From Massalongia carnosa (lineage: Eukaryota): DNA of 64,000 nt. The first letter of the stretch is position 1, and each line of letters begins with the position of its first letter. A program made the position numbers and the translations under genes. The stretch covers positions 1,364,001 through 1,428,000 of the forward strand of contig OZ287087.1 of assembly GCA_965645245.1 (NCBI GenBank), written 5' to 3'. Under the pieces are notes generated by a model. The model worked only from the letters and a program-made list of their open reading frames with translations. It searched no databases and was not told the DNA's origin. Shown one piece after another: positions 30,457 to 59,203 of the stretch.

Positions 30457-31439
30457 TTCTTTATCTGTTCTACAATGCAGACCTACTAGACATATGTAAA
30501 AGACCAGGCAGCAACTCGAGTGCTCTAGGCTTCGTAGATAATATCAATGTACTAGCATACGGAATAAGCACCAATGAAAATTGCAAGACGCTAGAGGTAA
30601 TTCACAAAAAATGTGAAAAATGGGCAAGTCGACATGGTTCAGTCTTCGCTCCGATGAAATACGAATTGATACATCTGTCTAGAAATCCGAAGAAATTTAA
30701 CATGTTCACTGTTATTCAAATAGGAAATAACATCATAAAACCAAAGACAGACGTCAGAATTATAGGACTTCAAAGCGATTCAAAATTGAAATAGGGCGCT
30801 CACAGATGGAAAATCCAGGAAAAAATGACAAAACAATTGTTGAAATATGTATATGACTATGGCTATATGGCTATGTTGTCATGAAATGCCTCCGACCTCA
30901 CCACGTGCCTCTATCACGTGCCTTGATCTGATGACTACTCACGGACGTCGTGCCATGCCTTCGGGACCCTCATATCATTCTTCGAATTCGCCGATTACTG
31001 ATCATTAATCAGCCTCGCATTGACGATTTATTCCCGTCTTTCGACTATTATCATGTCTAATAGCTTCGCATTGATGTTTGACATCTCCCGTCTTCTCGCT
31101 GACCCCATCGTGCTTATTGCCGCTATAATGCCCCTCATTCATCATCGCACTGACTAGACATCATTCGCCGCCACCCTAGAAAGATGAATATGGGAGGACA
31201 AAGATATAAGAAAGAAGTCGAATCATGGAAGTTCTGATTCTTTGTCGAACGTCTTGAATAGCCAACCTAGCCTAGCCTAGATTCATAGCTATAGACTCAA
31301 TCAATAAGCTTGACCATCAACCCACCTTGCCTTTGCCCTTGCCCTCGACCTGATTTCGTGACATTACGTTCGACCAAGATTCAAAAGTGCCTTCCATAGC
31401 ATTTTCCCTCATCTCCCTTTATCTCATTCCCCCTCAATC

Positions 31440-37027: not shown

Positions 37028-38427
37028 ATAAGATGGCATCGCAGGAGCTCTGCCTTGAAGGGGGAGCTACTGTCATGAAATGCCTCCGACCTCACCACGT
37101 GCCTCTATCACGTGCCTTGATCTGATGACTACTCACGGACGTCGTGCCATGCCTTCGGGACCCTCATATCATTCTTCGAATTCGCCGATTACTGATCATT
37201 AATCAGCCTCGCATTGACGATTTATTCCCGTCTTTCGACTATTATCATGTCTAATAGCTTCGCATTGATGTTTGACATCTCCCGTCTTCTCGCTGACCCC
37301 ATCGTGCTTATTGCCGCTATAATGCCCCTCATTCATCATCGCACTGACTAGACATCATTCGCCGCCACCCTAGAAAGATGAATATGGGAGGACAAAGATA
37401 TAAGAAAGAAGTCGAATCATGGAAGTTCTGATTCTTTGTCGAACGTCTTGAATAGCCAACCTAGCCTAGCCTAGATTCATAGCTATAGACTCAATCAATA
37501 AGCTTGACCATCAACCCACCTTGCCTTTGCCCTTGCCCTCGACCTGATTTCGTGACATATGTAATAATAAAGGTATGTGTAACCGTGATTTTGAGGATGA
37601 ATTATTGCTAGGCAGCAATCTTTTTGTAATGGGTCAGCGTGAGAGGTGGAAGATAGCTACAACGTGCTAGTCTCCGAGAGTATACGTGATCCAAAGAACT
37701 TACTGATGTGGAAGTGCTTAGACCAAGAGATCTCGTCCGAGACCCAAACGTAGGTTGTTTACTGTGCTGGTAGGAATTGGATATTCAACAACAATCCAGG
37801 GCATTGACAAAAATATCCACCTCCACATGGGGCGCCACTTTTCTAAAGGCACGCCAGGTTTACACCGCCGTAGTCCGGCCGGCCATGACGTACGGCTCTA
37901 CTATTTGGCACATATCAAAAGAAATTCAAAAATCAAAAGTTATCTCAAACAAACATCCCCGCTAGACAAACCCGACGATAAGAGCCACAAGTAAGCGTAC
38001 AAACCACGGTCGAGCATCTGATCTCCTCCCCAAAGCATCATTACAGTTATCATGATAAGAAGCAGAGTTGCATACCCTACAATGTTAACAAAACAAGGCC
38101 TTCTAAACGCAAAGGAGAATAATTGACTGAAAGGTATGAAAATAAAAAGAAAAAAAAGCGACAAGGTGCTCATACAATTTGGGAATGCGGAGGAGGTCAT
38201 CCAATTAAACCTTGCTGTAAAATTCAGAGCTATTGGGAGGCATTATATCTGAATTGAAACGTGTGAATGAAATTCATGTAAATAGTAGTTGATTGGGCGT
38301 TCTGTCAAAAAGGGTCAAATAGGGTTAGCAAGTACTTGATCTGATTGGTGGGAAATTAAGGTTTCGGGAGCTCTAAACTATCTATAGTTAGTGGGGGAGG
38401 GTGATGCCTTCGTGCCAGCGAGAGGGG

Positions 38428-38960: not shown

Positions 38961-40284
38961 CAGTCGGGTCTAGGAAGTGACCGAACAGCGCACGTTCCAC
39001 CCCCATTTTACCCCTCACCCCTAATGATGAAAATCACCCTAATCAATCAATTTTCAACTTGATGCTTTGAAACCTTCATGTTTCGTCAAATACTGTATGC
39101 TGAAGAAGATTAAATCATCAGTATTTAATAGAACACCCTTTAGCCTTAATAAGAAAGCGAATACACTCAGGCATGCTCTCAATGCACCGTCTGAAGTCCT
39201 CCTCAGTCAACAGCTCCCATTCCTCCCGAATAGCCTGCTCCATGGCCTCAATTGTATGGATTTGGTGACGACGGGCACTGACCTGTATTTGATAATACGC
39301 CAGAGATTCTCAATGGGATTCAAATCGGGTGACTGAGGTGGCCAATCCATGCGTAAAAGCCCGTTTCGTCTCCCCCAATCAATCACCTTTTTCGAAGTAT
39401 GATAGCTGGCTCCGTCATCTATCCAGATCGTCAAACCTCGCCTAGTCAAGCATACTTCATAAAACGAGAGCCCTAAAGGCCGTAGCACCTCGTCAATGTA
39501 GATATCTGAATTCATTCGTCTCCCCTTATTCAAAACGAGCATAGGGCCTTTTTCACCAAATCGTATGCTAGCCCAGATGCCCACAGTGCTTCGTCCGCTT
39601 TTGAATGTAGGCTTCAGATATCTAGACTCCATGGCCGTGCCTTTTCGTCTCGTGACGTAGCACGAGCGAGTATCTAAACCAGTTTCAAACGTAGCTTCAT
39701 CTGTCCATATAACTCGGCCCCAATCTCCTACCGTCCAATGCTTATGCTCCTTGCCCCATTTTAGCCTGATTGCTTTGTGACGTGCTGATAGAAACGGCTT
39801 TTTTCTAGCCCTGAAACGGAAATAGCCACCGAGCTTCAGATATTTTCGTACGGTGACGCGAGAGAGCTTTTGACCCGATTTGGAAGGGGTAGTCAGGGCC
39901 AGCAAATTATCGTGTGGATTTTTCTCAACATGGCGAATCAATGCCCGTCTGGCACGGACATTTAGCTTGGTTGGCCGACCAGTACGTTTTTTGGGAACGG
40001 AAGAGGCGTCGGCTTGTCTCTTAGCTCTATGAACTATGGTGACCACGGTGGAACGGGCCAGCCGAACTTGACGGGCTATTTCAGCATAGAAATAGTGGAC
40101 TTCATGAAGAGCTACAACGACAGCAATGGTTTTAGACGAATGTTCACGTCTGGCCGTCTTGGGTTTGGAAGGCATTTCGTTGATCAGATGAAAATTGATG
40201 GAGAAAGGGGAGGGTGAAGTAAGGGGGGAATTTAGATGAGGGGAAATTAAGCGAAGTGTTTGCTGACTTCCTAGACCCGATTTG
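38961..40284 (-). mobile_element. Tc1-like (DD34E) transposon Tc1-A; transposase 40175-39118 with a late frameshift
   Basis: TIRs CAGTCGGGTCTAGGAAGT; TA flanks; WTDEATF, DDGASYH, SPDLNPIENLW motifs. Confidence 0.92.
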
Positions 40285-40489
40285 TACAAATCATGTCAAC
40301 TCGTTATATGAACTATTGATTTGTAATAATGATTGAAAATAGTTGGTAACAATATATCTCAATTCTTTCCCAGTTTACATCTCCTTACATGACTTTTCAT
40401 TCATACTTTCGTGTCATGATAACAATCTTTAATAACTCAACTTTGTAGACCTAGCCAATTTTCTTGTCCTTGTATCCGCCCATAAAAAA

Positions 40490-41053
40490 TCAGAGGGCGG
40501 CGTGGTTCTGAACACGAATTCTACGGTTGCGACTATAGACCTGCTTCACCTCGGTGTCTAGCACGCATTCGCAATCGGTGTTATCTTTTGCGTCGACTAG
40601 GCACTTGATGATGAAGCCTTCGTCACAGTATTCGTCGTTGTCATCATCTCCAGCTATAGCGAAATTATTGATGAGTAGAAGTTTATGCAAAGGTTAGATG
40701 ATGATAACATGAGAGACTCACTCATATGTGGCGTCTTCATCACTGCGTTTGGAGGGCAACAATACGCCTTGAAGCCAGTCGCGCAGCATTTTCCATCTCC
40801 GCATTGCGACCTACCAGACTCTTTAAACCCGTTTTAGCAATTGCCGATGCAGATAGGTGCCGTTCCTGCCCAGTAGCAGTAGGCTGTAGTGCTGATATCC
40901 GCAGGTGTGGTAACGTGGACGTCTGAGAAGTGTTGATGGAGTCATTAGTCACTATAAATGAGCAACTCGAAAATGCTAGAATGACATACCTATAGTTGAA
41001 GCGGCGGCAAGGGCTGCGAGAAGTAAAGGGAGCTGGCATTGTAGAAAGTGCAT
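40490..41053 (-). pseudogene. Small secreted Cys-rich protein, copy 1, premature TAA at 40836-34 (exons 41053-40990, 40922-40722, 40653-40490)
   Basis: Exon lengths (64/201/164) match copy 2; introns GTATGT..CTAAT..CAG and GTGAGT..CTAAC..TAG. Confidence 0.85.
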
Positions 41054-41764
41054 GATTGATAGTGTTGATTGGGACTTGGTAGTTTTTTCTAAAGATAATA
41101 AGAGCTTGATTATTTGTTATTCTGGAAGCCGATACTGTTGAACACCCACTATCGCAGGGTAGTCTACCTGTATTATATCGCTGAGAAATGATGAGAAGAC
41201 TCGAGTTGAAAGCGTCACAAAAGTATACTGTAATGCAGATACCTCTGCTCATTCCTCCGTGTCGCGGATATGAAGACGGAAACTCCAGAACGACGTACAT
41301 CAATCGATTCTCGTACACCGCATATCTTCATCGAAAGGTGTCCATTATCAGCTGCAAAAAGTCTATTCATGTAAGTCGGGTATAGCAATTGCTTTATCCA
41401 CTACCTACCCCCGAACCCATCCGAAAGAAGGGGGTATCAAGATGACATCAAGCATGTTCTTGTACTGATGATGCTTTCGCGTCAAAGTTCTTTCGAGCAA
41501 TAAGATGTAAATACTCGTTGTCTCAATATCTCTGGTTATGCTAGAGATAACACGGATTACATCCGGTTGCCGATCATTTATAAGGTTGCGGATGTATTCC
41601 GTGTATTATGTGCGCACTCCTCAAAAATACATGATACATAAGCCGAATGCTCTATGCAACAGACTACATGTGAATTCTTTCTCCTCCAATAGTGCCTTAA
41701 ATTTTCAACCTACATATGTGAATAAAATCCCAGGTTGTGTTATTTGTGTCATGGAGTGCTAAGG

Positions 41765-42004
41765 TGTCAAACCTGAATGCGGTCGATTCTCATCGCCGAT
41801 CCTCGACCCCCTGTCGCGGCTGATGCCGCTAAGACTACGCCATTTCTTTCCCACCTTTACCCCTCAATTTGCCCGGGTTGATATCGTTGCCGCCATGACC
41901 CCTTTTCCCTTCTATATAGGTAGCTAGATGTGTGCATTTCCCATATACAGAATACAGTCTTTTCATCCTTCCTGAATCCATGTTATTGATCAGAAAGGTT
42001 GACA
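41765..42004. mobile_element. Solo LTR (240 bp) upstream of gene copy 1
   Basis: TGTCAA...TTGACA; TSD TAAGG/CAAGG; empty site GACAAGGTCCG in the paralog near 50635. Confidence 0.9.
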
Positions 42005-43785
42005 CAAGGTCCGACCCTCAACGGAAATCTAATTGTTGCTTATTATGTTAGAATATACTAATCATACATCTGACATTGCGAAAATGCATGTTTAAATCAT
42101 GGTAAAGTCAACATGACATTTAGAACAAGCTATCTTCGAATCGTCGCGTCTTTTAGTTCTCTCTCGTTTTTTTATCCATCGCCAAACGTCTTGTCTGTTT
42201 TAATAGCAATGGAAATGCAACATCGATATGACCGCTGGTATTTCTAGTCATGACATCAACTGTGTATGTGGAGTTTCGACAAAGACCTCAGCTTAGATCT
42301 TATATTTGACTTTTTGACTTTCTTCCCCGCTCGCAAAACGCATCACCCTGCCGCCGGCATTACAAAATATAATCGGGTGTTTGTTGTCATGCCGTTGATT
42401 ATGTAGTGTGAATTTTTGACCAAGACCTCAGCATAGATCCTGTTTCTTCCTGTTAAAACGGGCAACCGATACCAGGTACCGAAACTAGCTGACAAAGCAA
42501 TTTGTATGGAGTCAGAAATCGCATCGGGAGAAACAAACGATGAGATGGGAATGGGGCTTCTGGAATGGCTAGTGGACGGGCATAACTAGGAGCAGTTTTA
42601 CCCTACGTACTGGTAGAAAGTCAACCATTTCTCCCTGTCTTTTGTGCACTTGTATAGCTCGTTTGTCAAACTAGTTATATCACCTGTCCAGTGCTACCAT
42701 TCCGCCTATTGCAGTCACATTTCCAACGTGTTAGATATCGAACTTCCATTAGCATAAGGAAAACTTGCAAGTTCAATAAACAAAATTACTTAAAATTATC
42801 ATAAATTGAAATAACACATGCGAAAATCTTCAGATGGGGGGGCAAGAGAATCCAACGGATATGTAGCAACAGAAGGCAGTAGATCTAGTCACTCTATCCA
42901 CTGTTTTCGCGACAGACCTTTCAGGTCACATGGCCCACAACGGGTTATCCTTCTTTTCACACGGCTCAGTCTCCTCTTTCCTTGGTGGGTCTACGCGCCT
43001 GCGCTGCCTCGACCTCGCATCAGACGTTTTGTCAATCGCGCTCGCATTCATGGGTGGCCCTTAATCTCCTCATCCCTCAATCTCCTCGGCCTCCCAACTC
43101 TGATCCTAGGCTTGAGGAACTAGAGGATCGTGCCAATTTAGCCGTTGCGCTATCTCTCCGTTCTCCCGCTGCAGGTCTGCATGAATGGAGATGGATCCAT
43201 TTGGAAGCAAGCTAGAAGCTCGTAGACCGTCATATCTGCCTCTGCCTCCTCCGTCGAGCAATGTTCCACGAATTCTCACCTGATCTTCAAGTTTGCTACG
43301 GCATTGTTTGAAAGCTTTGGCATACAGGAAGGATGGCATCGCCGCCAAAGCTTGGGGTTTCCACAAGTCTGCATGGCTGTGTTAAAACGAATCGCACTTT
43401 GGGGATTGAAAGGAATGACAGTTATGTCTCTAGGAGAGAGGACCCCTGAAATGTTGATTTGGACACAATCTCTATATCAACACTGCTCATAGGAATATAA
43501 CTGAACAAGAACAGGACTAGGGAAACGTTGCTCCTAGAAGCCTCGGCCTCCCAGCCTTGCCCTGTGTATGAGAATACTTCAATTGTAGCATATGTTCGCC
43601 AGATCCGTAAGATAGACTGATAAAGCGTTAACTAGAGAAAGTCATCGCTTTGAATAAAGAAAATAATATCGAGAGAGTCGAGAAAACGGATGTGATTCGA
43701 TCAAATAATATCAAAGATTGTCGCATTCGTTATTATAAAGATATTATATCTGATGACTATAGATGATGTCATAAGTTTATAAATA

Positions 43786-44122
43786 GAGTACGGATACGTG
43801 GACACCCCTTTGGTTACCTGGACACCCGCCAGTGATACATGGACACCCCCTTCCTAGAATAGGTAAGAATCAAGGGTTCAGCCCCCTCACTTACCCACTT
43901 CGGGGTAAGCTCCCGAGGGTGCACCTCGGGAATTTTTTTTCAACCGTAAGCACCAACATTTTGGCACTTCGTAAACATCAACATCACCAACATTTTGACA
44001 CTTAATCATATCTGCACCACCTCCTGACCCCCCTCCTCCTGACGGACTTGCACCCCTCGAAGATGAACCAGCTGTTAGATGAGACAGCCATCCTATGTGC
44101 CGTGCCAGACGGCAACATAACC
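43786..44122 (+). mobile_element. Left-end remnant of a MULE related to MULE-1
   Basis: GAGTACGGATACGTGGACACC resembles the MULE-1 TIR start; three TGGACACCC repeats; no partner TIR. Confidence 0.5.
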
Positions 44123-47100
44123 GAGATGCTTAGGGACAGTCCCCCCCCGACCGTCCCCCCCCCCCCTGTGTAAATCTTTGCTAGTAAACAGCCATTTCAT
44201 TTCACTGCTTATCCAGGGTTGCGTACAAGCTAGTACTGCAACTGCCAACAGCACATTAAACTCTTCTCGGTTTAAATCGTATGACGTGTTGTTATTGCTA
44301 CTAATAATTACCCTACTCGGTCTGATAAAGCATACCCTCACCCTCACCCTCATATACCATTTGCCCTTGCCCTTGTCCTAACCCTTTGCCCTCCCTAAAT
44401 CTCCCCTTCCACTTATGCTATACCTCATATTATATATTTTACTACTCATCGCGATGGAGTTCGATCCCACTTCTTTGGATGCACGGAAGCAACATGCCAT
44501 TGCACTTCTACCCCCACCTCACCTCCTCCCTCCGCAAGAGAATGAGTTATTTTCGTCTTGGGAGGAGGCAAAGACTCGTCTTCAAGACTATGCCTTCACC
44601 CAAGGCTTCGCGTTGGTCACAGAAATTCACGATAAGAAAAACCATTTAATCGTATTAGACTGCACACGCCACCACAAAAGAGTTAGAAACACTAGAAAAG
44701 TAGAGGAGGAAGACCGGGTGCGAGCCAATACCAAAGTTTCGTTCAATGAGTGCCCTTATCGCCTCCGTCTCAAAAAAAAACAAAGACAATGCATGGAGAC
44801 TAATAGTCACTGACTGCGAGCACAATCATGAGATGGCCACTGATCCCTTTGCATCAGAGAACATCATAGTAGGGACCCTGATCGAACATGCCCTAGATCA
44901 AGCGAAGAGTCTCCGTGCATCGTCAACCCAATATGGCCAAGCAGCGAGAATATTAGGAATCCAAGGACTCCGTCTGTCGAGGAGCGATTATTATAATCTC
45001 GCTCATTCGGAGGGAGCTCACACGCCTGAAGAAGAGCTTCTTTTTGCTTTGGGCTCGTTGAAAGACAGGGGCTTTCATGTATGGTGTAAGGAAAAATAGA
45101 TTGTTAAGAATAATGTGCGTGAGAGACGGGTGATAGAACAAATTTTTTTTTGCAATGCAGAGCAAATTAGGCGGGCTCGACGTTTCGTGGGTGGGTTTTT
45201 ATTAGAAACGGATGCAACGTTGAATACTAATAAATTGAACTTGCCTTTATCCGTTTTGGTTGGAATCACTAATACCGACCTTTCGTTTCCCGTCGCTTAC
45301 TGCTATATAACTTCCGAATCAGCCGAATTTTTCACTTTTATTTTCGAATGTATGAAAGAGTTGATTTTTCATGATGATTGCCCCGGGCCTGGGGTGATTC
45401 TCGGGGATTTTGCAGCTGGGTTGACTGTAGCCATGCAAAGAAAAGCTAAAGCTCTGGCAATTGATCTTGATGCTGCATTGACTATTGCAAGAGAGGTCGC
45501 CGAAAATCTAAACCAATCAACGATGAAAGCGGGCGAGGAGAGATGCGTTTTGCAGCTGTGCACGTAGCATGCGGCCGAGGCAATAAAAAAACGACTGATC
45601 AAGGCATGAAAATAGCCCCAAGAAGTGAGCAAAAAGCTGGAGACTCTGATTTGGGATTATATAAAATCCCTCACTATGGATGAGTTGGATGAGAGACGAA
45701 GAAAGTTGTTGAATGAACTTCATCCCGCAGAAAAGGTTAGTAGTGATATATCAAATTAAATTTCAAGCGAATTAGGGCTACTGCTAACGCTACCTCTTTC
45801 GCAGGATTATCTCATGAATTTCTATCAACGTCAAGAAATTCAATTCGTGCATGCATATACTACTAAACTCCCTAATTTAGGCGCACACAGCACACAGCGT
45901 TCAGAAGGTCTACATTCATTGGTTAAAAATGTGACCAATAGAAATACTCCTATAAGACAATCGGTGCAGAAAATATGTGATGAGGTGCGGAATAAACAAT
46001 TAGATCGGGAGATTTGGTGCAATCAACAGCGAATACGCAATCCTAGATTGATCGATAGAAATGCTTTTACGTTACTCATTGGGAAAATTACGCATCATGC
46101 CATTGGCCTCGTTTCAAGAGAACTCGATGCCGCCAAATCATTAGCTGAACGAATCCTTTCTATTGTCACTGATGGTGGAAGCTGTCTTTATGATTGTGAG
46201 TTGCCTTTAAGGTACGGTCTCCCATGCAAATGCTGATTGTATAAATGCATCATCGACTCGGTCCCTATTCCCATTTCCCTCATCCACCCCCGCTGGTTTT
46301 TTGATGGCCCACCTTATGCGGTCTCTTGGCAAATGACCTTCGATTTCGCTCGCGGCTCGGAGCCCGAGGTCGAAAAGATCGTCGATGAGGTCGAAGGGAC
46401 GGGAGAGATTGAGGCGGATAAGGCTGAGGTCGAGCTCGAAGAAGGCGTGTTGAGTGCAGATAGATTTCGCCGCGGGGGCCTTGATTTGCTACATTCTGTG
46501 GCATATCAATCTATTGACCTGCATCAATCAATAGAAGATTCTCATCGAAGGGAGGAGTACGCTCGCGAGCATGCTCACATCGTTGAAAAGTTCAATAAGA
46601 AATGGCAAAAGAAGGAGCTGGTAAGACCTCTCATCCCCACCACATTCCCCGACGAAATTCGGCCCAAAGAAAACCTCATGTATAAGAAAGGAGGGAGTCG
46701 TCGACGTGCCTACACTGGTCGCGAGGCAGCTGAGGCTAGAGAAACTGAACAGCGACGTACTAGGCGAAAGGACTCTATTGAACATGGGAGGAGGCTTAGA
46801 TATAATAGATTGCGTGCTGGGGGCGACGATGAGGTTGAAGGTCAAACAGAAGGTAAAATTCACGATGTTGCAAAGTTATTGCGCTCGGGTCGGCTAATAT
46901 TGGGTACAATAGGTTTAGGAGAAAACTTAGTTATGGAGAGAATCGAAAAGGCGTCTATCGTCTCCGACGACGATGACGAGGTGCAGTATATAAGCACTCA
47001 GCCCATTCTCGGTCGTTCTATGGATCCTATGCTTCCTTCGGATGACGAAAATGATATTATTCTTACATCAGAAGCCTCGTCGGATTCGCTCGAAGATATT

Positions 47101-47550
47101 GAGTCAAAAAGCCCTACCTCAGGCAGCGCCGGCTCCACCTCTTTATAGCCATAGCCAAAACGTGCGCGCCAGTCAAATTCTCCCTATTTCCTCTGCAACA
47201 ACGCGAAGGTCTCGGGGTGTGGCGAAGTAATCAAAGGCTCAGTTGGAGTTGGAATCTCAGCAAAGAGTCGAGAAATCAGTCAAACAGGCTAGGGCTCAAG
47301 CGAGAAAGGTGGCTAAAACCATGAAGCCTAGAAAAGATGATATATCGCAATTGGCTGACGAGTTTTTGGAGTTGAAGTCATCGCAATCGGTAGATTTGTA
47401 GGTGTGGAATACACTTAGTCAGTAACAGCAACATTATTAATACGTAGTATAACTGCTAGCTTGTACGCACCCTGGATAAGTAGTAAAATGGCTGTTTACT
47501 AGTAAAGATTTACACAGGGGAAGGGGGGGGGGACTGTCCCTAAGCATCTC
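44123..47550 (+). mobile_element. MULE-2 with degenerate transposase (~44454-47400)
   Basis: TIRs GAGATGCTTAGGGACAGTCCCCCCC...; ETDATLNTN, LGDFA, LQLCT*H, STQRSEG, YGLPCKC motifs; many stops and frameshifts; no TSD. Confidence 0.9.
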
Positions 47551-47733
47551 GTTGAGAGTATGTCTAAGCGTTGTCGCATGATAATTCAGGCTAAAGGAGG
47601 ATCTATCAAATATTGATTATTTGATTTTGCTCAGCGATCACAATATCATCAAATTTGAATGTTTGAAGTCATTGAATTGAATATTGAATTTGGAAAGTAT
47701 GTTGAAAGAAAGGGAGTAGGGTACACCCGATTG
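47551..47733 (+). mobile_element. 3' remnant of a second Tc1-like element, Tc1-B
   Basis: VESMSKRCRMIIQAKGGSIKY* (stop 47614-16) resembles the Tc1-A C-terminus; ends ACCCGATTG followed by TA. Confidence 0.78.
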
Positions 47734-47938
47734 TACACATCATGTCAACTCGTCATATGAGCTATTGATTTGTACTAATGATTGAAAATAGTTGGTAACA
47801 ATACATCCCGATTCTTTCCCAGTTCATATCTCCTTACATGACTTTCCCATCATACTTCCGTGTCATGATAACAATCTCCCATAACTCAACTTTGTAGACC
47901 TAGCCAACTTTCTTGTCATTGTATCCGCCCATAAAAAA

Positions 47939-48502
47939 TCAGAGGGCGGCGTGGTTCTGAACACGAACTCCACGGTTGCGACCATGAACCTGCTTCACCT
48001 CGGTTTCTGGCACGCATTCGCAATCGGTGTTATTTGTTGCGTCGTCGGGGCACTTGATGATGAAGCCATCGTCGCAGTATTCGTCATGGTCATCATCTCC
48101 AGCTAGAGCGAAGTCGTTGATGAGTAAAAGTTTGTGCAAAGGTTAGATGAGGATAACATGAGAGACACACTCATATGTGGCGCATTCATCACTGCGTTCG
48201 GGGGGCAACAATACGCCTTGCTGCCAGTCAAGCAACATTTTCCGTCTCCGCATTTCGACCTGCGAACCTCTTTAAACCCGTTTTTGCACTGGCCTTCGCA
48301 GATAGGTGCTGATCCTTCCCAGTAGCAGTAGGCTGTAGTGCTGATATCTGCAGGTGTAGTGATGTGGACGTCTGAGAAGTATTGATGGAGTCGTTAGTCG
48401 CTATAAATGAGCATCCTGAAAATGCTTGAATGACATACCTATGGTTGAAGCGGCGGCAAGGGCTGCGAGGAGCAAAGGTAGCTGATGTTGTAGAAAGTGC
48501 AT
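47939..48502 (-). CDS. Small secreted Cys-rich protein, copy 2, intact, 142 aa, 12 Cys (exons 48502-48439, 48371-48171, 48102-47939)
   Basis: Spliced product MHFLQHQLPLLLAALAAASTIDVHITTPADISTTAYCYWEGSAPICEGQCKNGFKEVRRSKCGDGKCCLTGSKAYCCPPNAVMNAPHMTGDDDHDEYCDDGFIIKCPDDATNNTDCECVPETEVKQVHGRNRGVRVQNHAAL; introns GTATGT..CTAAC..CAG (67 nt) and GTGTGT..CTAAC..TAG (68 nt). Confidence 0.88.
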
Positions 48503-49038
48503 GATTGACAGAGTTTTGATTGGGACTTGATAGTTTTTGCTAAAGATAATAAGAGCTTGATTGTTTGTTATTCTGGAAGCCGATGCTATTGAAAACCCAC
48601 TATCGCAGGGAAGTCTACCTGAATTATATAGCTGGGAAATGATAAAAAGACTCGATTTGAAAGCGTCAGAAAAGTATACTGTAATGCAGATACCTCTGCT
48701 AATTCCTCCTTGTCGCGGATATGAAGACGGAAAATCCAGGACGACGTGCATCAATCGATTCTCGTACACCGCATATCTTCACCGAAAGGTTTCCATTATC
48801 AGCTGCGAAAAGTCTATTCATCTAAGTCGGGTATAGCAATTGCTGTATCCATTACCTACCCCCAAGCTCATTCGAAAGAAGTAGGTATCAAGATGACATT
48901 TAGCATGTTCTTGTACTGGTGGTTGCTTTCGCATCAAAGTTCTTTCGATCAATAAGATCTAAGGCAGTGCTTTGTCGAGAATCCATAGAAAACGGGAAGG
49001 CGAAGATGCTCGTTGTCTCAATGTCTCTAGTCATGCTA

Positions 49039-50414
49039 CGAAGGATGACGCCGAAAGTCCTTGCTAACGCTAAATATGCAGCTAAAAAAGCTACTTTACA
49101 TGGGTATATTTGCATGGATAGATATTTATTATACGGTCGTACGACTCCGATCTCTCTGCCTTCTCTATACTCTTTACCTCCGTCTAACAATATCACCTCG
49201 TCAACATGTCGCTTTATACGTTCAATCCAGGACTGAATTCTTTTCTGCGTCAACTCCTCCGTCCAGCACTTTGTCCAGGCACTGGGGGCCTTTTCTTCCT
49301 GTACGATAGTGTTTGGTCGATCTATCATACATTTTTTTGCAAACGGAAGAAGCTTAGGAATTAAGACGAGTTTTTGATAACGATACCAGTCCACTCCTCC
49401 CTTGCCATCTCGAACGACTTTACCGTGTGTTTTATCGCATTTCCAGAAAGGTTTTCCACCTCCTGGATTACGTAGCTTCATTCGTCTCATGCTGGTTTCT
49501 AGCTCCCAATCTCATTGAGTTCAGCTAACTCAATTTGAGCCTCTCTTTTCTCTTTTGCGGTCTCTGTTTTCTAGATATGAAAAGGTCCTTTCTTATCGTA
49601 CGAAAAACAGCCCCAAAACAAAAACCCGGAGCATCCTTTCTATCTACGTCGAATACACGTTTTAGCATACATTTCTTTCGAGGTACGCCACTGAAGTCTT
49701 CTTCCACGTCTAGAACTCAATATAATGCTTGTTTCTTCAGTCCATATAACGTTCTTCCAATCATCAATAGTCCAGTGCTGATATCGCAAACAAAAATGCA
49801 GACGAGCCTCTTTCATGATCGAATCTAGACCTGGCGTTTTCGTGCTTTTACAGGGGCGAAACCCATTCTGTTTAAGCGTAGGAAGTATAGTAGTGGAGGA
49901 GAGTTTATGATCAAAGCCAATCATAGCTGAAGATTTTTTCTCTGCTATTTCGGTCTTGCACTACATTATTCAATACAGCTTGCTCTACCTCCGGTGTAAC
50001 CTTTTTAGGTCGTCCTGAACGAGGTGCATCTTCTATATATTCTACTTCTAAAACACGAGATACAGCTGGATCATATCCACGCAGTCGTGCTTTGATTTTG
50101 AGAGCTGATATCGATCTTGTAGAGACTCCAGTCACTGCTTGCACGATTTTTGCCGCAATTCCGTGTTCTACAAGCGCTAAAGCCTGTATTCTTTGTGCAA
50201 TCGGGAGACTATTACTCTGTGCATTGGGCATGATAATGATGATGATTAAAACCTTCTACTGAATATCAGATGTAGTATTACTGTCTTTTTGACGACGAGA
50301 ACAGAAGCAATTCGAGATTCTCTAGACTATTTTAGTACTATATTCCCCTTGTAAGCTAATAAACACTAATGCACGTCTCATGTACGCTAGCAAGGACTTC
50401 AGCGTCATCCTTCG
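49039..50414 (-). mobile_element. Tc1/mariner element Tc1-C, frameshifted and internally deleted
   Basis: TIRs CGAAGGATGACGC..AAGTCCTTGCTA; TA TSD; DAPRSGRPKK, WKNVIWTEE, VQEEKAPSA fragments; SPDLNPIE region absent; empty site in copy 1 near 41541. Confidence 0.9.
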
Positions 50415-51618
50415 TATAGACCACACGTATGACATCGGGTTGCCGATCATTTATAAGGTTGCGGATATATTCCGTGTATTATGCGCGCACTCCTCAAAAA
50501 TACATGATACATATGTATAAGCGCAATGCTCCATGCAATAAGTTAGACTACATGTGAACTCTCTCCTCGAATAGTGCATTAAAGTTTCAACCTACATATG
50601 TAAATAAAATTCTAGGTTGTGTCATGGAGTGACAAGGTCCGTCCGTTTACGGAAACCTTATAGTTGCTTATTATGTTAGAATATGCTAATCCTACATCTG
50701 ACATTGCGAAAATGCATGTTTAAATCATGGTAAAGTCAACATGACATTTAAAACGAGCGATCTCCGATTAGTCGCGTCTTTTAGTTCTCTCTTGTTTTTT
50801 TTATCCATCGTCAATCGTCTTGTCTGTTTGACTAGCAACGGAAACGCAACACCGATATTACCGCTGGTATTTCTAGTCATGACATAAACTGTGTATGTGG
50901 AGTTTCGACGAAGACCTCAGCTTAGTTCTTAGATTTGACTTTCTTTCCCGCTCGCAAAACGCATCACCCTGCCGCCGGCATCACATAATAGAATCGGGTA
51001 TTTGTAGTCATGACGTTAATTATGTAGTGTGAAGTTTTGATCAAGACTTTAGCTTAGATCCTGAATTTGACTTTCTTTCTGTTAAAACGGGCAACCGATG
51101 CCAAATACCGAAACCAGCTGACAAAGCAATCTCTATAAAGTCCGAAATCGCAAACAACCGATATGATAGGAATGGGGGCTTCTGGAATTGCTGGCAGACG
51201 GGCATAAGCAGGAGCAGTTTTACCCTGCATAGTGGTAGAAAGTCAATCATTTCTCCCAGTCTTTTGTGCACTTGTAAAGCTCGTTTGTCAAAATAGTTAT
51301 ATCACCTGCCCAGTGCTATCAATTCCGCCTGTTGCAGTCAGTCACAGTTCCAAAACTTCCCCGCTCGCAAAACGCCTCAGCCCACCGTCGGCATCACATA
51401 TGTAGGTAGGTATGGAGATCTGAGAGATCATAGGATGGGTTGAAGTAGAGACTGAGTTTATTGAACTACTGAGCTCGATAGAGCAGAATATATAGCTCAA
51501 ATGATGACTAAGTACACATGTGAAAGGGGAAATGTCGAGGACATGTGATCGAGCATGTGAAAGAGTGAGATAATTCAGGCTGATACACCCCCAGGTTGCA
51601 GAGAGTCGGAAAGCTGTA

Positions 51619-53545
51619 ATCGTGCCAAAACACTAAACCCCAGGGTCTAGGGCCTGACGGTCTACTGACGCATACAGTCTACTGACGCACTTTTCCCATT
51701 TTCACTACCATTTTCACCACCTCGTTCATCTACCACCATGCCTAACTCATATTCTAATAAGGAGGATCAAATTGTCGATGCTATAAACGCGTGGAACACG
51801 GGTGAATTTCGAAGTATACGCGCAGTAGCCATTGATTTCGATGTCGACATTCGTACGCTTCAAAGACGACTTGCTGGAGTGGGTTCGCGCATCGGTCGAT
51901 CTGGCCCCAACAAGGTCTTATCTCATGAACAAGAATTGGCCCTTTGTGAATATATTGTGATGCTCGATCAAGCCGAACAATCAGCCAGGTTTTCAATGGT
52001 TCGGGGGGCTGCTAATTATCTACTTCGAGAAGCTCATTTAGACGCCTCCATCCCCCCCCCACCTCACGTCAGCGAGGCTTGGACCAAACCTTTCCTCAAT
52101 CGTCATCCTCAATTTTTCAAGCGAAAACAAAAACCTCTGGCCGCTGAGCGAAAACACGCGCACAATGCATAAGACATGCTCGAGTATTTTGAAGCATATC
52201 GAACTGCGCGAAAGACGCGGGGAATAGCGGACGAGGACGTTTAGAACATGGATGAAACGGGCTTCGAATTGGCTGTGGCAGGGCTCATTGGGTTATATCA
52301 ACTCACTCCAGAAAGCCCTTGCTATTGACAGATCCAGATAATAGAGAATATGTCACCTCGTGTGAGTGTATTAGTGCTGGGGGGCGAAACATTCCCCCCC
52401 ATGGTGATTATCGCGGGGGTTTTGATTCTCGAAAAGTGGACACAACAAAACGATCTGAATGACGATATTTTGTTGACTACTAGTCCTACCGGCTATTCCA
52501 ATGATGATTTGGCTATTGATTGGTTGAAACATTTCGATAAACACAGTCGAAAGGGTCAGGTAGGGGCCTGGCGTATGTTGATCATGGACGGGTATGGATC
52601 TCATATGACATATGAGTTTTTTACATATGCCAAACGAAATCACATTGAATTGTTTCGTTTGCCTCCTCATTCAACACATCTTCACTCAGCCATTGGATGT
52701 AGGATGTTTTCAGCCGTTCAAACATTATCATTCCGAAGGCATTGACGAAATGGTGCGACTCGGAGGGGCAGATTTCGACAAACTGGATTTTTTGTCCAAT
52801 TTTCATCGCATGCGAAATCAAACATTCACCTCATCTACCATATTATCGTCATTCTGAAACACGGGTCTGGTGCCTTATAATCCCAATGTGGTAATTCGAA
52901 AGCTGGAGGCAATTCAAACCCGGAGACCTGCTACCCCGCCCCCACCTTTGTCAGCCCCTCTGCTCGCCAGAACGCCCCGTACGACTAAAGAGGTGGTTGA
53001 ATATGGCTTACACCTTCGAATGAGTTTGAAGAAATACAACGTGCTGGACAATGAATGGGATTGTCATGTGAATTGATTTGTGAAGGGCTCTATTTCCAAT
53101 GCGCATGCACGTTAGATTATCGAGCGGGACCTTCGAGCCAGTCAACAACAATCCATCGCGAAGGCGGCTCGTAGAAAATTGGATGGAACGGTCGCCCAGA
53201 AGGGAGGGGTCATAACTGTAGGAGATGTACGGGCCAAAACCTCGAAACGTTGTCAGAACGAGGTGGAAAAGACCAGACTGGCCTATGAACGTGCCACACT
53301 AGCTGCTGAAAAGAAGCAGATTGCCCTGGACAAAAGGTATAAAAGAATCGCCAGATCGATGCCCAGACAAGCGAAGCTATTTTACCAGCGTCATAATCAA
53401 TCAGTTTCTGCATAACCGTTGTTGTCCTCGATTTGTAGCAGAAATGGTAGTGAAAATGGGAAAAGTGCGTCAGTAGACTGTATGCGTCAGTAGACCGTCG
53501 GGCACTAGACTCTGACTCGGTTGGGGTTTAGTGTTTTGGCACGAT
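51619..53545 (+). mobile_element. pogo/Fot1-like transposon pogo-2 with degenerate transposase (51738-53415)
   Basis: TIRs ATCGTGCCAAAACACTAAACCCC...; TA TSD; NMDETGF, MDGYGSH, QPLDVGCF motifs. Confidence 0.93.
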
Positions 53546-55415
53546 TAAGGCATGCTAACAAAACGAAGGAGATGAAAAGCAGTCGAGGAGCGTATGAGCG
53601 ATTACGACGTGGGTAATGATCATTGTCAAGTATCAGTGGAAGTGGGAGAAGGCTGTGAGACGTTGAGTTGATCGCCGATATCCTCAAGACTGAGCTGGGC
53701 CATGAAGACAGCGTGTTTCTGTCGCGAAAGGATCTTCGTGAAGTCGTCGGCTGGCATCTGATTTGTTTTGATCCATTTCACGTTGATCTCATCGTGTTGG
53801 ACGGCTTGACGGAGCCACATCTGATGGATGTCAACGTGCTTGAGTTTCATCTGAAGTTTCTCAGTAGTCTTGTTGACTACTCCGACCATTTGAGCGTTGT
53901 CACAGTAGATCGTGGGTTTGATGTCGGGATCGAAGTCAAGTTGCTTGAAGAGATTGTTCCACCAGATGAGCTCGGAGCCTGTGCGAGAAATCGGCCTCAG
54001 TGGTGGATTTGGATACCGTGCGTTGCTTGGTTGCCTTCCCGTCAATTGGCAGCTTGAAGAGTTTGAAGATGTATCCATCAGAGCTGGTTCTAGAGACAGG
54101 ATCGTCGGCAAAGGAAGCGTCAGAGGCACCGAAAAAGCGTGGTTCAGTGAAGGCGAGATCTAATTCATCGTCCTCGGAGTGAGGAGCAATCCAGGAGTGG
54201 CTTTCGTTGATATTTTCGTCAGCGGAGGCCTTCATGGCGGTAGTGTACGTTTTCCAGAGGAAGCGCCATGACTGAGTGATCTGGCTGAGGTGCTTCGGGC
54301 CAGGAAAGGTGAGGTAGCGTGAGAGTACGCTGTGGGACTTGGAGACGTCAGGTCTTGTTTGAGCTGACAGGAAGCCAAGGGATCCAACAAGTTCTTGATA
54401 GACAGCTTGTAGCTTAAGGTCGATGGGGCCGATGAAGGGCTCAAGCTGTTCATCACTCATAGGACAGTCTGGGAGAGAGGTGACACCTTTGAGCAGGTCG
54501 TACTTCTTCACCACCTGTTCGATAAATGAGTCTTGACAAGCCACGTGTGCTTGAGATCGTTGCTGCGTACGACGCGGATGCCGAGAAACCAGTTGAGTTG
54601 ACCCATAGAGCGGAGCTTGAAGCGGTCTTTGAGACGCGATTCGAAGTTCTTGTGAGCATGGAGTCGGCTGGGATGAACTAGTTCAACGCTAGTTCGTGTC
54701 AATCTCGTTATATTGCTACTAAGTATGTTTGGGCTATTGCTCACAGCCCCCGGCCTCGAGAGGGGGACTCGATAAGGGCCTTGCTGTCTACTAATGTAAG
54801 ACCCTCTCGCAGGCCTTGGGCTGTGAACAGACTCCCTCTATCTAAGCGACAGAAGAACTGGAGTGGGTGGGTGGGAAAGAAAACGTTGCAAACAGTGCTA
54901 TCAAAATGCTATGCTTTTTGATTGTCTTGAGATGTGAGATGATGAGGGATACCGTCTGGGACCTCCTCTTTATATATCTTCTTCCTATTCTCCTTGTCCT
55001 ACTCTACCATCCCAGTATGCCCCATCAACGCGGCCCATAGCAAGGCATACACAAATCCGAAACCTAACTGTCGTCCGAAGGATCGATGCGGTGCTAAGAT
55101 CTCTATGCCGTGCTGAGACATCCTTATGGTGCTGAGACATCTATGCCGTCCGAGAGATCCATGCGGTGCCGAAATCAAAGCGGGAGCTGTCTCGATTAAC
55201 GACGCACTAGCTCTCAGCATAGCCGAACTAGCTAGTTCGTGTCAATCTCGTTATATTGCTACTAAGTATGTTTGGGCTATTGCTCACAGCCCCCGGCCTC
55301 GAGAGGGGGACTCGATAAGGGCCTTGCTGTCTACTAATGTAAGACCCTCTCGCAGGCCTTGGGCTGTGAACAGACTCCCAATCCCCAACATGGAACGACC
55401 CGCTTGCGGTGTTGT

Positions 55416-56231
55416 TCAGGACCTAGTGACTGGATTGTGAGGTTCCGTGGGTAATGTTTGAAGGCGTTTTGAGGCGTTAAGAAGGTAAGTGGGGTGGGTT
55501 TGTATGTAAAGCTTGTATGCGTCTGACTTCCATCTTCCTAGCATCTGAATCTCGTCTTCGGTGAGTCCTGCCCGTCGCGCTGTTGTTGCCGCACCTCTTC
55601 TGAACGAGTGGCCAGAGAAATTTCCTATATAGCCCAAGTTCCTTAAGGTGGATTTCATCGCTGTTGTAATGTAGTCTCGAGTGAAGGACTGACCGTTTTT
55701 AAAGAGTGGTGCGGCCGGAGAACTTGGGAATCGCCTATATAAATTTGTAAGAGAAGCTAGTGCACAAGCAACATCGTTGGTAGCCGCAATTGTCAGTGTT
55801 ATGCCTCGGCGAAAGGGATCGGTTTTGGAGACTGGTAGAGAGAGCTGTAGGTGATCTGCTTCGAACCTAATAGATTTTCTGGTGAGGTGCCATTGATCAA
55901 AGCTTGGGTCTAGTACATCTTGCGTTGTGTAAGTAAATTCTCCGGCTCGTAAGAAGCCTGCAAACGCTAAGCAGTACGCCGCATGTAAATTTGCGCCTTT
56001 CTCTTTCGTTTGATCAAGACGACTTAGCAATTTGATTAAGATCTCTCTAGTAATTGGTAACCTTTCACGTTTCTCGGCTTCACCGTTCTTTCGCTTTATG
56101 CCAGTAAGGATGCGATCTAACACCGGGTGATGAAATACGTCGAGATTACCGAGGCCCATATCTATCTGGCATGATCTTATGCCCGTCAAGTAGCTCTTAA
56201 TAGTTTTTGGTTGCAGGCGTCGTTCACCCAA
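55416..56231 (-). CDS. Tyrosine recombinase; frame stays open upstream toward the RT/RH end
   Basis: GFLRAGE (R), SKTD (K), GHSFRRG (HxxR), GRW.S.AYKLY (W, Y). Confidence 0.93.
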   Translation of the reverse strand: MGERRLQPKTIKSYLTGIRSCQIDMGLGNLDVFHHPVLDRILTGIKRKNGEAEKRERLPITREILIKLLSRLDQTKEKGANLHAAYCLAFAGFLRAGEFTYTTQDVLDPSFDQWHLTRKSIRFEADHLQLSLPVSKTDPFRRGITLTIAATNDVACALASLTNLYRRFPSSPAAPLFKNGQSFTRDYITTAMKSTLRNLGYIGNFSGHSFRRGAATTARRAGLTEDEIQMLGRWKSDAYKLYIQTHPTYLLNASKRLQTLPTEPHNPVTRS

Positions 56232-56431
56232 CGCTGCGATCCACGAAGACAGCGTCCGGATGTTGGCTGGAAATGGTGGCGCGTTGAGGTTTACCCTACA
56301 GTAAAGAACGTATCCCTTTCTTGCCGTTGTGTATAAAGATCTTGTCTTAGTGGCCAGGCCCCACCAGAGGTATCGTGCTGCGATTTCGTCTAGAGGTACC
56401 TCACTGTACCAAGATGGGGGTGGATCGCGTC

Positions 56432-58003
56432 CTATATTGCTGAGGGTAGAGCCTGAAACTGAGGGATTTTGTCAGCCAGTTTCTTCAAAAGTCCTCTAGA
56501 CAAGAGATCAGCAATATAATTTTCTTTGGATGATATCCATCGCGCTTCTATCTGGATATCATGTAATGCAGCTAGCATTGTAATTGCCCGCAGGGCATGC
56601 ATTGCTTGGCCTCGTATAGAGGTTTTATTCACTCCTTTCGTGACAGCGTAGCTATCACAATAGAGGATTAAATGACTACCCTTGCATATAGGTAGCCACT
56701 TTTTCATAGCTTGAAGAATTGCTGTCATTTCTTTGACGTTGATATGCTTTGCCCTAAGGCGCGTAGTAAAGCGTGTGCTAAAAGCCTGCCGGGCTGCTTG
56801 TATATTATGCAAATTTTGATCCTCGCTGAGGATAAAGCCGCCCATACCATATGAGCCGGACGCATCTGTCCATATTCTCATAGTATGTCTAGTACGGTTG
56901 AGCAGATGTATGCCATTCCATTTAGGTAGGAAATGATGCCACCATAGAAGATCAGCCCTCATGTCCTTGTTAAGATGGATTGGTTTAGAGGTTACGCTTG
57001 CCGTAGCATTGAAAAGACGGCGTAGAAAGGCTCTTCCTGGTTTTACCACTCTGGCTGCAAAGCATAAGAATCCTAGAAGAGAGTCGAGTTCCTTCCTGGG
57101 TATGGCTTTTTTATTCAAAGCTGCCGATACTAGGGTCTTTGCTTTTAGTAACTTTTCGGAAGGCAAGCGTGCTTCCATGAGCGCGGTATCGATTTCAATG
57201 CCGAGGAAATCGCAAGTCGTTCCAGTTCTGTTCTTTTCGAGCTTGATTTTCATGCCAAGATCTTTACAAATGTTGTGGAAAACTTGATCAAACTTTTCAG
57301 CATCTGGTCCGGTGCTGACTATTATTAAAAAATCATCCAAGTAATGAATAGCGTCTTTCCAACCACAGTTGTACAATATCCAGTTGATACCCTTCGCGAA
57401 CAGATCAAAAAGGAACGGCGACGTTCTCAGCCCAAAGGGTAAGTATTTATCCATCCAAAAGGAATCCTGCCACTTGAAACCTAGTAACCACCAATCGCTT
57501 TTTGCTACTAGTATGTGGCGAAAAGCGTCCGCAAAGTCTCTTTTAATAAGAATACACCCTGGCCCGCGTTGCTCAATCAACCTAATGGCTTCGTCGAAGC
57601 TGGTATATTCCAGGGAGCCCCAGTCTTCCGGTATGTGGTCGTTGACTGAGCTACTCTCCGGATACGATAGATGATGGATTCGCCGCCAACCACCGTTAGC
57701 CTTTGGTACAAGGCCTAATGGGGAACATATAAAGCAAGAAGGAATGTTGTTGACTTTCTCCAACCGATTACTAGCTATTTGTTCTTCGAGGTCATTGGTA
57801 AGAACTTCCGGTGCCTCATTTGCAGAGGCAAGATTATCGCTAATAATGAGTTGATGTGGTCCTGTATAACCAACTTTGGCACCGTAGGTGATGATATCGA
57901 TAATTGTTTGTGTGTAAGTGCGATCCGGGTGATTGGCCAAATGTTTCTCCCAGCCTTCTTTCTTCAATGGGCCCGGTGGGATCTTTGTTAGATTGTCCGT
58001 CAA
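56432..58003 (-). CDS. DIRS/Ngaro-type reverse transcriptase-RNase H
   Basis: PLGLVPK..WRRIHHLS, DFADAF, LPFGLRTSP, YLDDF, WTDAS, INVKE, YCDS, ADLLSR. Confidence 0.95.
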   Translation of the reverse strand: MTDNLTKIPPGPLKKEGWEKHLANHPDRTYTQTIIDIITYGAKVGYTGPHQLIISDNLASANEAPEVLTNDLEEQIASNRLEKVNNIPSCFICSPLGLVPKANGGWRRIHHLSYPESSSVNDHIPEDWGSLEYTSFDEAIRLIEQRGPGCILIKRDFADAFRHILVAKSDWWLLGFKWQDSFWMDKYLPFGLRTSPFLFDLFAKGINWILYNCGWKDAIHYLDDFLIIVSTGPDAEKFDQVFHNICKDLGMKIKLEKNRTGTTCDFLGIEIDTALMEARLPSEKLLKAKTLVSAALNKKAIPRKELDSLLGFLCFAARVVKPGRAFLRRLFNATASVTSKPIHLNKDMRADLLWWHHFLPKWNGIHLLNRTRHTMRIWTDASGSYGMGGFILSEDQNLHNIQAARQAFSTRFTTRLRAKHINVKEMTAILQAMKKWLPICKGSHLILYCDSYAVTKGVNKTSIRGQAMHALRAITMLAALHDIQIEARWISSKENYIADLLSRGLLKKLADKIPQFQALPSAI

Positions 58004-58048
58004 GGTGTATGGAAAGGACTCCGCGATGGATAAGAATGGGGCGGTTAG

Positions 58049-59203
58049 TCATTGCCTTGATGGGAGAGGCATCGAATTTGGGTTAGAGGGTTGATTTTTT
58101 CCATTTGTACAGTCCATCGCCCGATGTTGCTTTCCACATTTCTCGCACACATGTTGGAATCTACAATATACGGGACAGTCTTTGCCATAGTTGTATTTCT
58201 TACAGATAATCTTTTCGCCTGAGGTTTTGAAAGCCGTAGAATTATCGTCCGGTTTTGCAAAGTAAGCGGACGGTTTCCGCACAAGATGCCTTTCCAAGGA
58301 ATGGTCCATTTCTTTCCATCCATCCGGGTTGTCAATCCCGCGAAAGGCTCGAGATTTGTGGAAATTCAAATGAAAGATGCGAACCGAGTCCCAGGTGTAG
58401 AAGGCGTATAATGATAGAAGATGGTCCTGATAAGCCATGAAGGCTCTCATCAGGTTTATCTGGAGACCGGGGTGTGCAAAGTGTAGTAGTATCATCCAAT
58501 ATACCCCGAGACATCGTATCAAATGAACTATCCCTTTGATATCTTTTAAGGAGCCATCTTCTTCTCTCGTGGCGATTTCCAGACCTTCTCCGAGTTTGAC
58601 GTATCTAGAGTTGGTTTGAACTCCGTCGATGTCGGTACATAGCTTGGTAATGTTGATTGGGTCAAACGTATTCTCGGAGATTTGCTTTATCCATATGGGC
58701 TTGATAGTGGGATATTCGTTCATAAGAGAAACAAAACGAGGATCCATACCTTCTGTATACAATGAGTTTGGTCGATGCGGTGGAAATGATGTCGGAAATA
58801 ATAGGGAAGGCTGTTGAGCTGAGGCTACTGGCCCAGGGACCACGTCTCGGGCACGTGCTTGTTGGGTTTCGATATCCCGCCTAAGACTTACTCTTTCTCT
58901 TTCCTCGGCTTCCCTGCGGGACATTTCGCGTTGTGCTCTAAGTTCAATAATGTCATCAGGGGTGCGAGAACGGGTTTCCGGTATAACAGGCCCTTGTGAG
59001 GAGGAATTAAACGCTGAAGATGGAAGAGGAGAAGGTTGAGGATGGCTTTGAAGGGTTGCCGTGCTGTCTTGTGAGTCGGGTACTTCGACGTCTGGGTTGG
59101 AGTTGGCTAGATTTGCCCTAGCTCTAGTTCTAGTACGGGCTAGAGTGCTGCCTTGTGTGCGGGAGGTAGGCTTGGTGATTCTGTTGGAGATGCGGGTGGC
59201 CAT
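58049..59203 (-). CDS. Ngaro gag-like ORF1
   Basis: Open ORF from MATRISN; C-terminal CKKYN..C...C...HVCEKC...H....C zinc motifs. Confidence 0.85.
   Translation of the reverse strand: MATRISNRITKPTSRTQGSTLARTRTRARANLANSNPDVEVPDSQDSTATLQSHPQPSPLPSSAFNSSSQGPVIPETRSRTPDDIIELRAQREMSRREAEERERVSLRRDIETQQARARDVVPGPVASAQQPSLLFPTSFPPHRPNSLYTEGMDPRFVSLMNEYPTIKPIWIKQISENTFDPINITKLCTDIDGVQTNSRYVKLGEGLEIATREEDGSLKDIKGIVHLIRCLGVYWMILLHFAHPGLQINLMRAFMAYQDHLLSLYAFYTWDSVRIFHLNFHKSRAFRGIDNPDGWKEMDHSLERHLVRKPSAYFAKPDDNSTAFKTSGEKIICKKYNYGKDCPVYCRFQHVCEKCGKQHRAMDCTNGKNQPSNPNSMPLPSRQ

Follow-up and report, generated by a model that had tools for sequence, protein, structure and literature searches.

A small cysteine-rich gene carrying an unnamed cross-kingdom module in a transposon-rich region of the lichen fungus Massalongia carnosa

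Alpha-defensins are cationic peptides of about 30–35 amino acids (aa) with a three-stranded antiparallel beta-sheet core, a short spacing between the first two cysteines, and disulfides linking C1–C6, C2–C4, and C3–C5. According to the accessible part of PMC8877149, trans-defensins belong to animals, and the defensins of fungi fall into the cis superfamily. In lichens, function is lacking for most symbiosis-induced genes, and the available portion of the work on the Xanthoria lichen secretome reports effector-like folds, the word "defensin" having no occurrence in it (bioRxiv 10.1101/2024.08.16.608140). Here, we describe a small gene of Massalongia carnosa, referred to as copy A, the second exon of which encodes a cysteine-rich module present in fungi, bacteria, and animals. 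The gene lies in a window of 64,000 nucleotides (nt), positions 1364001–1428000 of contig C21 (OZ287087.1) in an assembly of 25 contigs and 52.16 Mb; coordinates below are window positions unless a contig is named. A twin, copy B, is located in the same window. The host is a lichen mycobiont of the Peltigerales type, near Lobaria, Sticta, and Peltigera, and not a plant pathogen; the best named matches of one of its MCM2 exons were Lobaria immixta (95%), Sticta canariensis (95%), and Peltigera leucophlebia (94%).

Gene model of copy A

The gene consists of the following parts.

48624..48630, minus strand: TATA-like box TATATAA, 128 nt 5′ of the ATG; copy B has TATAA at a similar distance; promoter role putative
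48439..48502, minus strand: exon 1, ATG at 48502 and hydrophobic leader, 21 codons plus 1 nt
48372..48438, minus strand: intron 1, 67 nt, phase 1, GTATGT..CTAAC..CTCAG; donor and acceptor shared with copy B
48171..48371, minus strand: exon 2, the 8-Cys module with a short linker on either side
48205..48327, minus strand: the unnamed 41-aa module within exon 2, C-x-W-x-G-[TS]-A-P-x-C-x3-C ... G-D-G-x2-C-x-T-G-x-K-x2-C-C
48103..48170, minus strand: intron 2, 68 nt, phase 1, GTGTGT..CTAAC..TCTAG; GT..AG retained in copy B
47939..48102, minus strand: exon 3, acidic 4-Cys module (~48014–48100, net charge −10), C-terminal tail, TGA stop

A preliminary description of the window, made by reading the sequence, had proposed three exons with canonical splice signals and a product of 142 aa, and this model was reproduced at exactly the same coordinates. 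Both introns contain a CTAAC branch site, and the acceptor chosen is in each case the first AG past it. Fifteen three-exon models with GT-AG introns and a product of at least 120 aa were possible; four had consensus-like sites, and the copy A model was the longest of these. Alternative acceptors at 48348 and 48333 and an alternative donor at 48168 are less likely, as they do not use the first AG past the branch site or lose cysteines. The product contains 12 cysteines, eight in exon 2 and four in exon 3, and both the 8-Cys motif and the acidic 4-Cys module were present as previously written. That the open reading frame (ORF) track misses the gene also held: no stop-to-stop ORF of at least 100 aa carries the protein, exon 2 lying within an open frame of 96 aa. 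The leader is hydrophobic as claimed, with a best 9-aa Kyte-Doolittle window of 2.69, and no other hydrophobic stretch was seen in the peptide; judged from this leader, the protein is probably secreted.

Cysteine-conserving homologs, the lack of which the preliminary description had listed among what would refute it, were found. P0175, a 148-aa protein of a different organism, combines leader, module, and acidic tail in a single frame. In a search of the whole genome, its matches to exon 2 (E 2.5e-10) and to exon 3 (E 5.8e-6, with 46% identity) fell in the correct order and on the correct strand. A hidden Markov model (HMM) built from 49 homologs with the query excluded scored exon 2 at an independent E-value (iE) of 1e-22, the best unrelated place in the window reaching 0.99; since these homologs were chosen by their likeness to the query, the score is partly circular. 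By eye, a conserved Asp following the leader in several homologs aligns with the residue created at the first exon junction. Pairs of homolog predictions differ by insertion or read-through at the same points, a hint that the intron positions may be conserved. Contigs of four sequencing runs continue across both introns without splicing, none of the matches listed contains an intron joint, and the runs are uninformative on expression. Copy A is thus confirmed as a genuine small cysteine-rich fungal gene.

The exon-3 module follows a pattern of an Asp-rich stretch and then C-x6/7-(C)-C-P-x2-A-x2-N-x2-C-x-C, which was derived from the query and its first matches. Of 222 proteins bearing an exon-2 module, six had it behind that module, and 100 rounds of shuffling produced no such case. 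Four of the six bearers are named, originating from Lasiodiplodia (KAK0642771.1), Aplosporella (KAF2146168.1), Jackrogersella, and Annulohypoxylon. In the P0175 model, the exon-3 module forms a separate small unit with a predicted local distance difference test (pLDDT) score of ~75. Because of its D-x-D-x-D run, one may speculate that it binds cations.

The exon-2 module and its proposed function

The module family comprises 470 clusters at E ≤ 0.001 and extends over fungi, bacteria, and animals, including amphioxus. Among 150 listed relatives, 111 have at most 200 aa, 89 carry a hydrophobic leader by a crude cut-off, and 91 contain two to five modules in tandem. A partner domain was observed in 20 of the 150, namely nine enzymes (astacin 3, Exo_endo_phos 2, PI-PLC-X 2, GDPD-like 1, kinase 1), four lectin-type domains (ricin-B 2, tectonin 1, tachylectin 1), four BTRD1, and three TSP1/EGF, the PI-PLC, GDPD, and tachylectin matches falling under Pfam's cut-offs. 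Matches to FANCL_C, zf-FLZ, and cEGF on four of the 150 relatives included no passing stretch and were treated as cysteine noise. Five proteins that are probably bacterial (P0053, P0098, P0146, P0026, P0084) combine three N-terminal four-Cys module repeats with a GDPD-like phospholipase D, PI-PLC-like, or Exo_endo_phos domain, and such fusions suggest membrane targeting. P0006, with 304 aa, contains five modules parted by dibasic (KR) sites and looks like a precursor that would be cut into single modules. Bacterial gene context gave no clue at six loci, and an earlier scan with one protein was likewise empty.

With residues numbered within the exon-2 peptide (P0001), 370 aligned modules retain W in 92%, P in 94%, D in 71%, T in 71%, K in 92%, and the glycines in 82–95%. 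The cysteines C15 and C55 were both present in 214 and both absent in 69 of 290 parsed modules and discordant in only seven, the sequences being related and not independent. C39 and C45 covary as well; the remaining four cysteines are near-invariant (95–97%), so covariation cannot pair them. The copy A module carries a charge of +3 and the whole of exon 3 one of −8; across the family, the median module charge is 0, and 29% of modules reach +2 or more. AlphaFold gave a pLDDT of 91–92 in the module core, the predicted fold being a small antiparallel beta-sheet resembling that of alpha-defensins.

The module appears to be undescribed. Neither the exon-2 nor the exon-3 peptide had a Pfam match at E 0.01, and the module itself had none in the 150 relatives, including to the CBM18, CBM14, LysM, and ricin-B families, although short modules can escape detection in both searches. 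The ESM Atlas offered no usable match for exon 2 and only leads at ≤0.80 for a Beauveria homolog, and NCBIfam and PHROGs returned nothing meaningful for 50 module members. The motif GTAPFC and six variants had no literature occurrence, and no title or opening of an abstract listed under related topics described the module, within a scope that leaves most subscription papers outside.

Three features of the family, its attachment to hydrolases and lectins, the retention of the same Trp, Asp, Thr, and Lys in organisms as distant as bacteria and chordates, and the lack of a consistent charge, argue for ligand-binding or targeting-like behaviour. We propose, with a probability of roughly 0.45, that copy A encodes a secreted surface-binding protein which recognises a glycan or lipid head group and acts on cells in the thallus. 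The two short introns would be spliced out, as the sequence signals and homolog mapping indicate, and the leader would send the protein to secretion, as its hydrophobicity and the family suggest. The exon-2 module would then fold as a small alpha-defensin-like beta-sheet with four disulfides, the pairings C15–C55 and C39–C45 being backed by covariation and the other two presumed. A conserved patch formed by W17, T/S20-A-P, D42, T48, and K51 would bind a conserved ligand on cell surfaces, for which a glycan or a (glyco)lipid head group is the likeliest candidate in view of the conservation and the appended use on hydrolases and lectins. The acidic 4-Cys tail might serve as a separate small accessory domain. 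Such a non-enzymatic, disulfide-locked protein might coat or recognise walls or membranes of the photobiont (cyanobacterial or algal), of bacteria, or of other fungi, or else the fungus's own wall. Its gene would have been duplicated locally in the transposon-rich compartment, with one copy lost to a stop in a process of birth and death.

One alternative is a direct antimicrobial in the form of a defensin- or RELM-beta-like peptide that would permeabilise bacterial or fungal membranes and so keep the thallus microbiome in check; its acidic tail would be a pro-piece that neutralises it. We consider a direct antimicrobial unlikely.

Further module genes exist in the host genome. Two of them, L003 (C16:976346) and L004 (C10:1721053), form a two-module pair 96% identical over 3 kb with an extra cysteine-rich tail; the C10 copy shows an apparent frameshift after the second module, and a protein similar to the pair clusters with Sticta canariensis MCJ1425251.1. 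One further module gene is located on C10. On C6, a GH18 chitinase (PF00704) carries the module behind its GH18 domain (E 5.7e-6), its cysteine-rich region being presumably that of the killer-toxin-like (subgroup C) GH18 type, and one module-only relative is annotated as "chitinase" by JGI. The host chitinase might point to a self-directed protein, acting on the fungus's own wall or matrix, whether as a structural cross-linker or by protecting or regulating the fungus's hydrolases, and many named homologs come from fungi that we take to be wood or litter decomposers without a living host. However, the module is also present in bacteria and animals, which have no fungal wall, and local duplication and loss in a transposon-rich compartment would be more typical of interaction genes. 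A role on the own wall is therefore, in our estimate, hardly probable.

For the family as a whole, a doubtful but wider proposal goes beyond surface binding by copy A. The family would be an undescribed cross-kingdom one with alpha-defensin-type fold and disulfide order, used by fungi, bacteria, and invertebrates either as a secreted protein of its own or to target chitinases, phospholipases, and proteases. It might represent a microbial counterpart, perhaps an ancestor, of animal trans-defensins that recognises a conserved ligand on surfaces, with lichens employing a two-module form to control their photobiont or microbiome. An alpha-defensin-like fungal module is noteworthy because the accessible text of PMC8877149 describes fungal defensins as cis-type. 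If true, a widespread fungal and bacterial trans- or alpha-defensin-like module with a binding patch would bear on the origin of that fold and would give a name to a domain found both in hundreds of hypothetical proteins and in chitinases of fungi. As a small secreted protein gene near transposons, copy A is ordinary; its value lies in the unnamed cross-kingdom module and not in its location. As a candidate for the recognition of partners or of the microbiome in lichens, the protein is small and expressible and offers clear residues to mutate.

The twin copy and the transposon setting

The preliminary description had overlooked a 90%-identical twin 7.4 kb away. The duplication and the elements next to it are as follows.

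40490..41053, minus strand: twin copy B, offset 7449 nt; both introns, splice sites, and 12 of 12 cysteines retained; in-frame stop in exon 2 at 40834–40836
47722..48962, no strand assigned: duplicated block around copy A, 89.6% identical to 40272–41510; homology again at 50415–51340 versus 41542–42717
44122..47551, plus strand: degraded MULE with terminal inverted repeats between the two gene copies, one end 388 nt downstream of copy A
49037..50416, minus strand: Tc1/mariner remnant inserted 535 nt upstream of the copy A ATG, not present at the corresponding site of copy B
38964..40280, minus strand: Tc1/mariner element directly adjoining copy B on its 3′ side

Copy B is a probable pseudogene. 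Its stop is not an assembly error, as contigs of sequencing runs X1–X3 match 40489–40898 without a single difference. The comparison of the twins yielded proportions of synonymous (pS) and nonsynonymous (pN) differences of 0.19 and 0.098, with a dN/dS of 0.47 (p 0.03); in the leader, one of 21 residues is changed (pS 0.30, pN 0.04). However, pN between the twins is indistinguishable from the divergence of the introns (15/135, p 0.74), and the evidence of constraint is therefore modest. In run X4, which carries another organism label, copy A showed four differences in 515 nt and copy B 18 in 618 nt (Fisher p 0.009), although the comparison did not cover the same part of the gene in the two copies; this pattern fits a live copy A and a dead copy B.

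Copy A might nevertheless be a relic in a transposon graveyard, intact in appearance but silent or in decay like its twin. The stop in copy B, the nonsynonymous divergence equal to that of the introns, the Tc1 insertion upstream and MULE end downstream, and an isolated fragment of the upstream region would all fit such a fate. This fragment of 270 nt (89–90% identity; L014:1347–1618, C21:1449347) lies ~37 kb off with no exon match nearby and is a possible remnant of a third copy; no third full copy was found in the genome search. However, the frame of copy A is open, its splice and branch sites, TATA box, and 12 cysteines are intact, its leader differs at a far smaller proportion of nonsynonymous than of synonymous sites, and run X4 shows fewer differences in copy A than in copy B. 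A relic is, on balance, decidedly unlikely. Repeat-induced point mutation (RIP) was rejected as the cause of the twin's decay, as CpA-to-TpA changes show no excess and the composite indices for RIP stay below zero over the whole window. The gene lies outside the terminal inverted repeats of the MULE, so its capture by that element was rejected as well.

The claim that the gene sits in a cluster of transposable elements (TEs) was borne out, the region being TE-packed and gene-poor. Of 36 other ORFs scanned in the window, 18 matched Pfam, in every case to transposon-type domains (MULE, DDE, Tc1, Gypsy, Copia, LINE, tyrosine recombinase). In 80 kb of flanking sequence, most long ORFs appear TE-like by eye, and host-like genes resume ~25–30 kb downstream. 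According to the available part of a Peltigera pangenome study, carbohydrate-active enzymes (CAZymes) and other secreted classes are as near to TEs as putative effectors (bioRxiv 10.64898/2026.06.16.732702). As TE proximity is common to all secreted classes there, the location fits a secreted gene and does not mark an effector.

The preliminary description had called the gene a typical effector candidate. It is small, cysteine-rich, probably secreted, and in a TE-rich region, and to this extent the description stands. The effector framing is not supported, since the host forms a lichen, the family is old, conserved, and cross-kingdom, few homologs come from pathogens, and TE proximity is non-specific. 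Of 55 homologs of a protein with the same architecture, 35 are named, and four of these belong to genera that we take to be plant pathogens; as a counterpoint, Fusarium oxysporum and Beauveria carry the module. A classical effector aimed at the photobiont would alter its defences or metabolism via a protein target. Besides size, secretion, cysteines, and TEs, such a role might draw on the effector-like folds in the accessible part of the Xanthoria study and on the module holding 10 of the 13 exon-2 differences between the twins. Yet this excess is not significant (p 0.46), conservation reaches deep across kingdoms, and in the Peltigera text at hand all secreted classes lie near TEs; we regard a photobiont effector as very improbable. 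In a broad sense, that of a protein acting on thallus microbes, "effector" may still apply.

Several other elements were observed in the window. Composite RIP indices were negative in 32 of 32 2-kb bins despite the very high TE density. A Gypsy element at 30877–37558 has 488-nt long terminal repeats (LTRs) that are 100% identical as well as open frames for gag (406 aa) and pol (1486 aa), and is a very recent insertion. A second Gypsy element (16183–22483) has 184-nt LTRs of 99.5% identity and an open pol of 1345 aa, and a degraded Copia element (24198–29071) has 193-nt LTRs of 98%. At 54688–59635 on the minus strand, a tyrosine-recombinase (YR) retrotransposon with reverse transcriptase (RT) and RNase H contains split direct repeats: 59265–59635 equals 54868–55239 (99%) and 55231–55379 equals 54688–54836 (100%). 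This A1..B1-A2-B2 layout is, we assume, that of Ngaro elements, and the element is apparently young. A degraded Tc5/pogo-type transposon (51617–53547) has near-perfect terminal inverted repeats. Between the twin and the MULE, 42499–43806 forms a single-copy island whose two short ORFs had no Pfam match.

Comparison with known systems

A DUF-B domain of the aquatic-clade sphingomyelinase D/phospholipase D (SMase D/PLD), ~70 aa with 10 conserved cysteines and C-terminal, was rejected as a counterpart because its cysteine pattern differs in the accessible part of PMC6299612; "GTAP" had no occurrence in the parts of its supplement that were searched. The host GH18 chitinase, presumably of the killer-toxin-like type, has the module behind its GH18 domain, whereas copy A, with its 142 aa and no Pfam match for exon 2 or 3, has no catalytic domain. 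The head of resistin and RELM-beta and the C-terminal modules of PCSK9 (1rgx, 1rh7, 7anq) superpose on the module model at a root-mean-square deviation of 3–5 Å with 13–20% identity, though the module has no coiled-coil stalk.

Closest in predicted fold are the alpha-defensins of the trans-defensin superfamily (HNP4, 6dmm/1zmm; HD6, 1zmq; cryptdin-4, 2gwp), homology being putative. The covariation of C15 and C55 would correspond to their C1–C6 disulfide. In contrast to alpha-defensins, the module measures 41 aa from first to last cysteine, its loops are longer (eight residues between C1 and C2, 17 between C3 and C4), and its fourth disulfide is optional. It is further distinguished by its W-x-G-T-A-P / G-D-G / T-G-x-K signature, its neutral family charge, and its tandem or appended use. 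The CxxxC helix and CxC strand of cis-defensins (CS-alpha-beta) are lacking: in the model, CxxxC lies in strand and loop, and the module ends in CC.

With 142 aa and 12 cysteines, copy A lies within the usual bounds of small secreted cysteine-rich proteins (<200–300 aa, several cysteines). It is similar to fungal effector candidates of this kind, including those of the lichen secretome, in size, leader, cysteine content, and TE-rich location, the gene-sparse compartment being a non-discriminating feature. In contrast to them, it is built from a cross-kingdom conserved module with 470 clusters and near-invariant residues and not from lineage-restricted, fast-diverging sequence, and its host is a mutualist. 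The uncharacterised hypothetical proteins of Lasiodiplodia, Aplosporella, Jackrogersella, and Annulohypoxylon, which have the same order of module and acidic C-terminal cysteine module, are its true closest family; unlike in copy A, two additional cysteines flank their first module as a pair, and their tail module often has five. Lineage, spacing, and helix features together place copy A in neither the classical effectors, the alpha-defensins, nor the cis-defensins. Copy A thus resembles a fungal small secreted cysteine-rich protein and, in its predicted fold, a trans-defensin.
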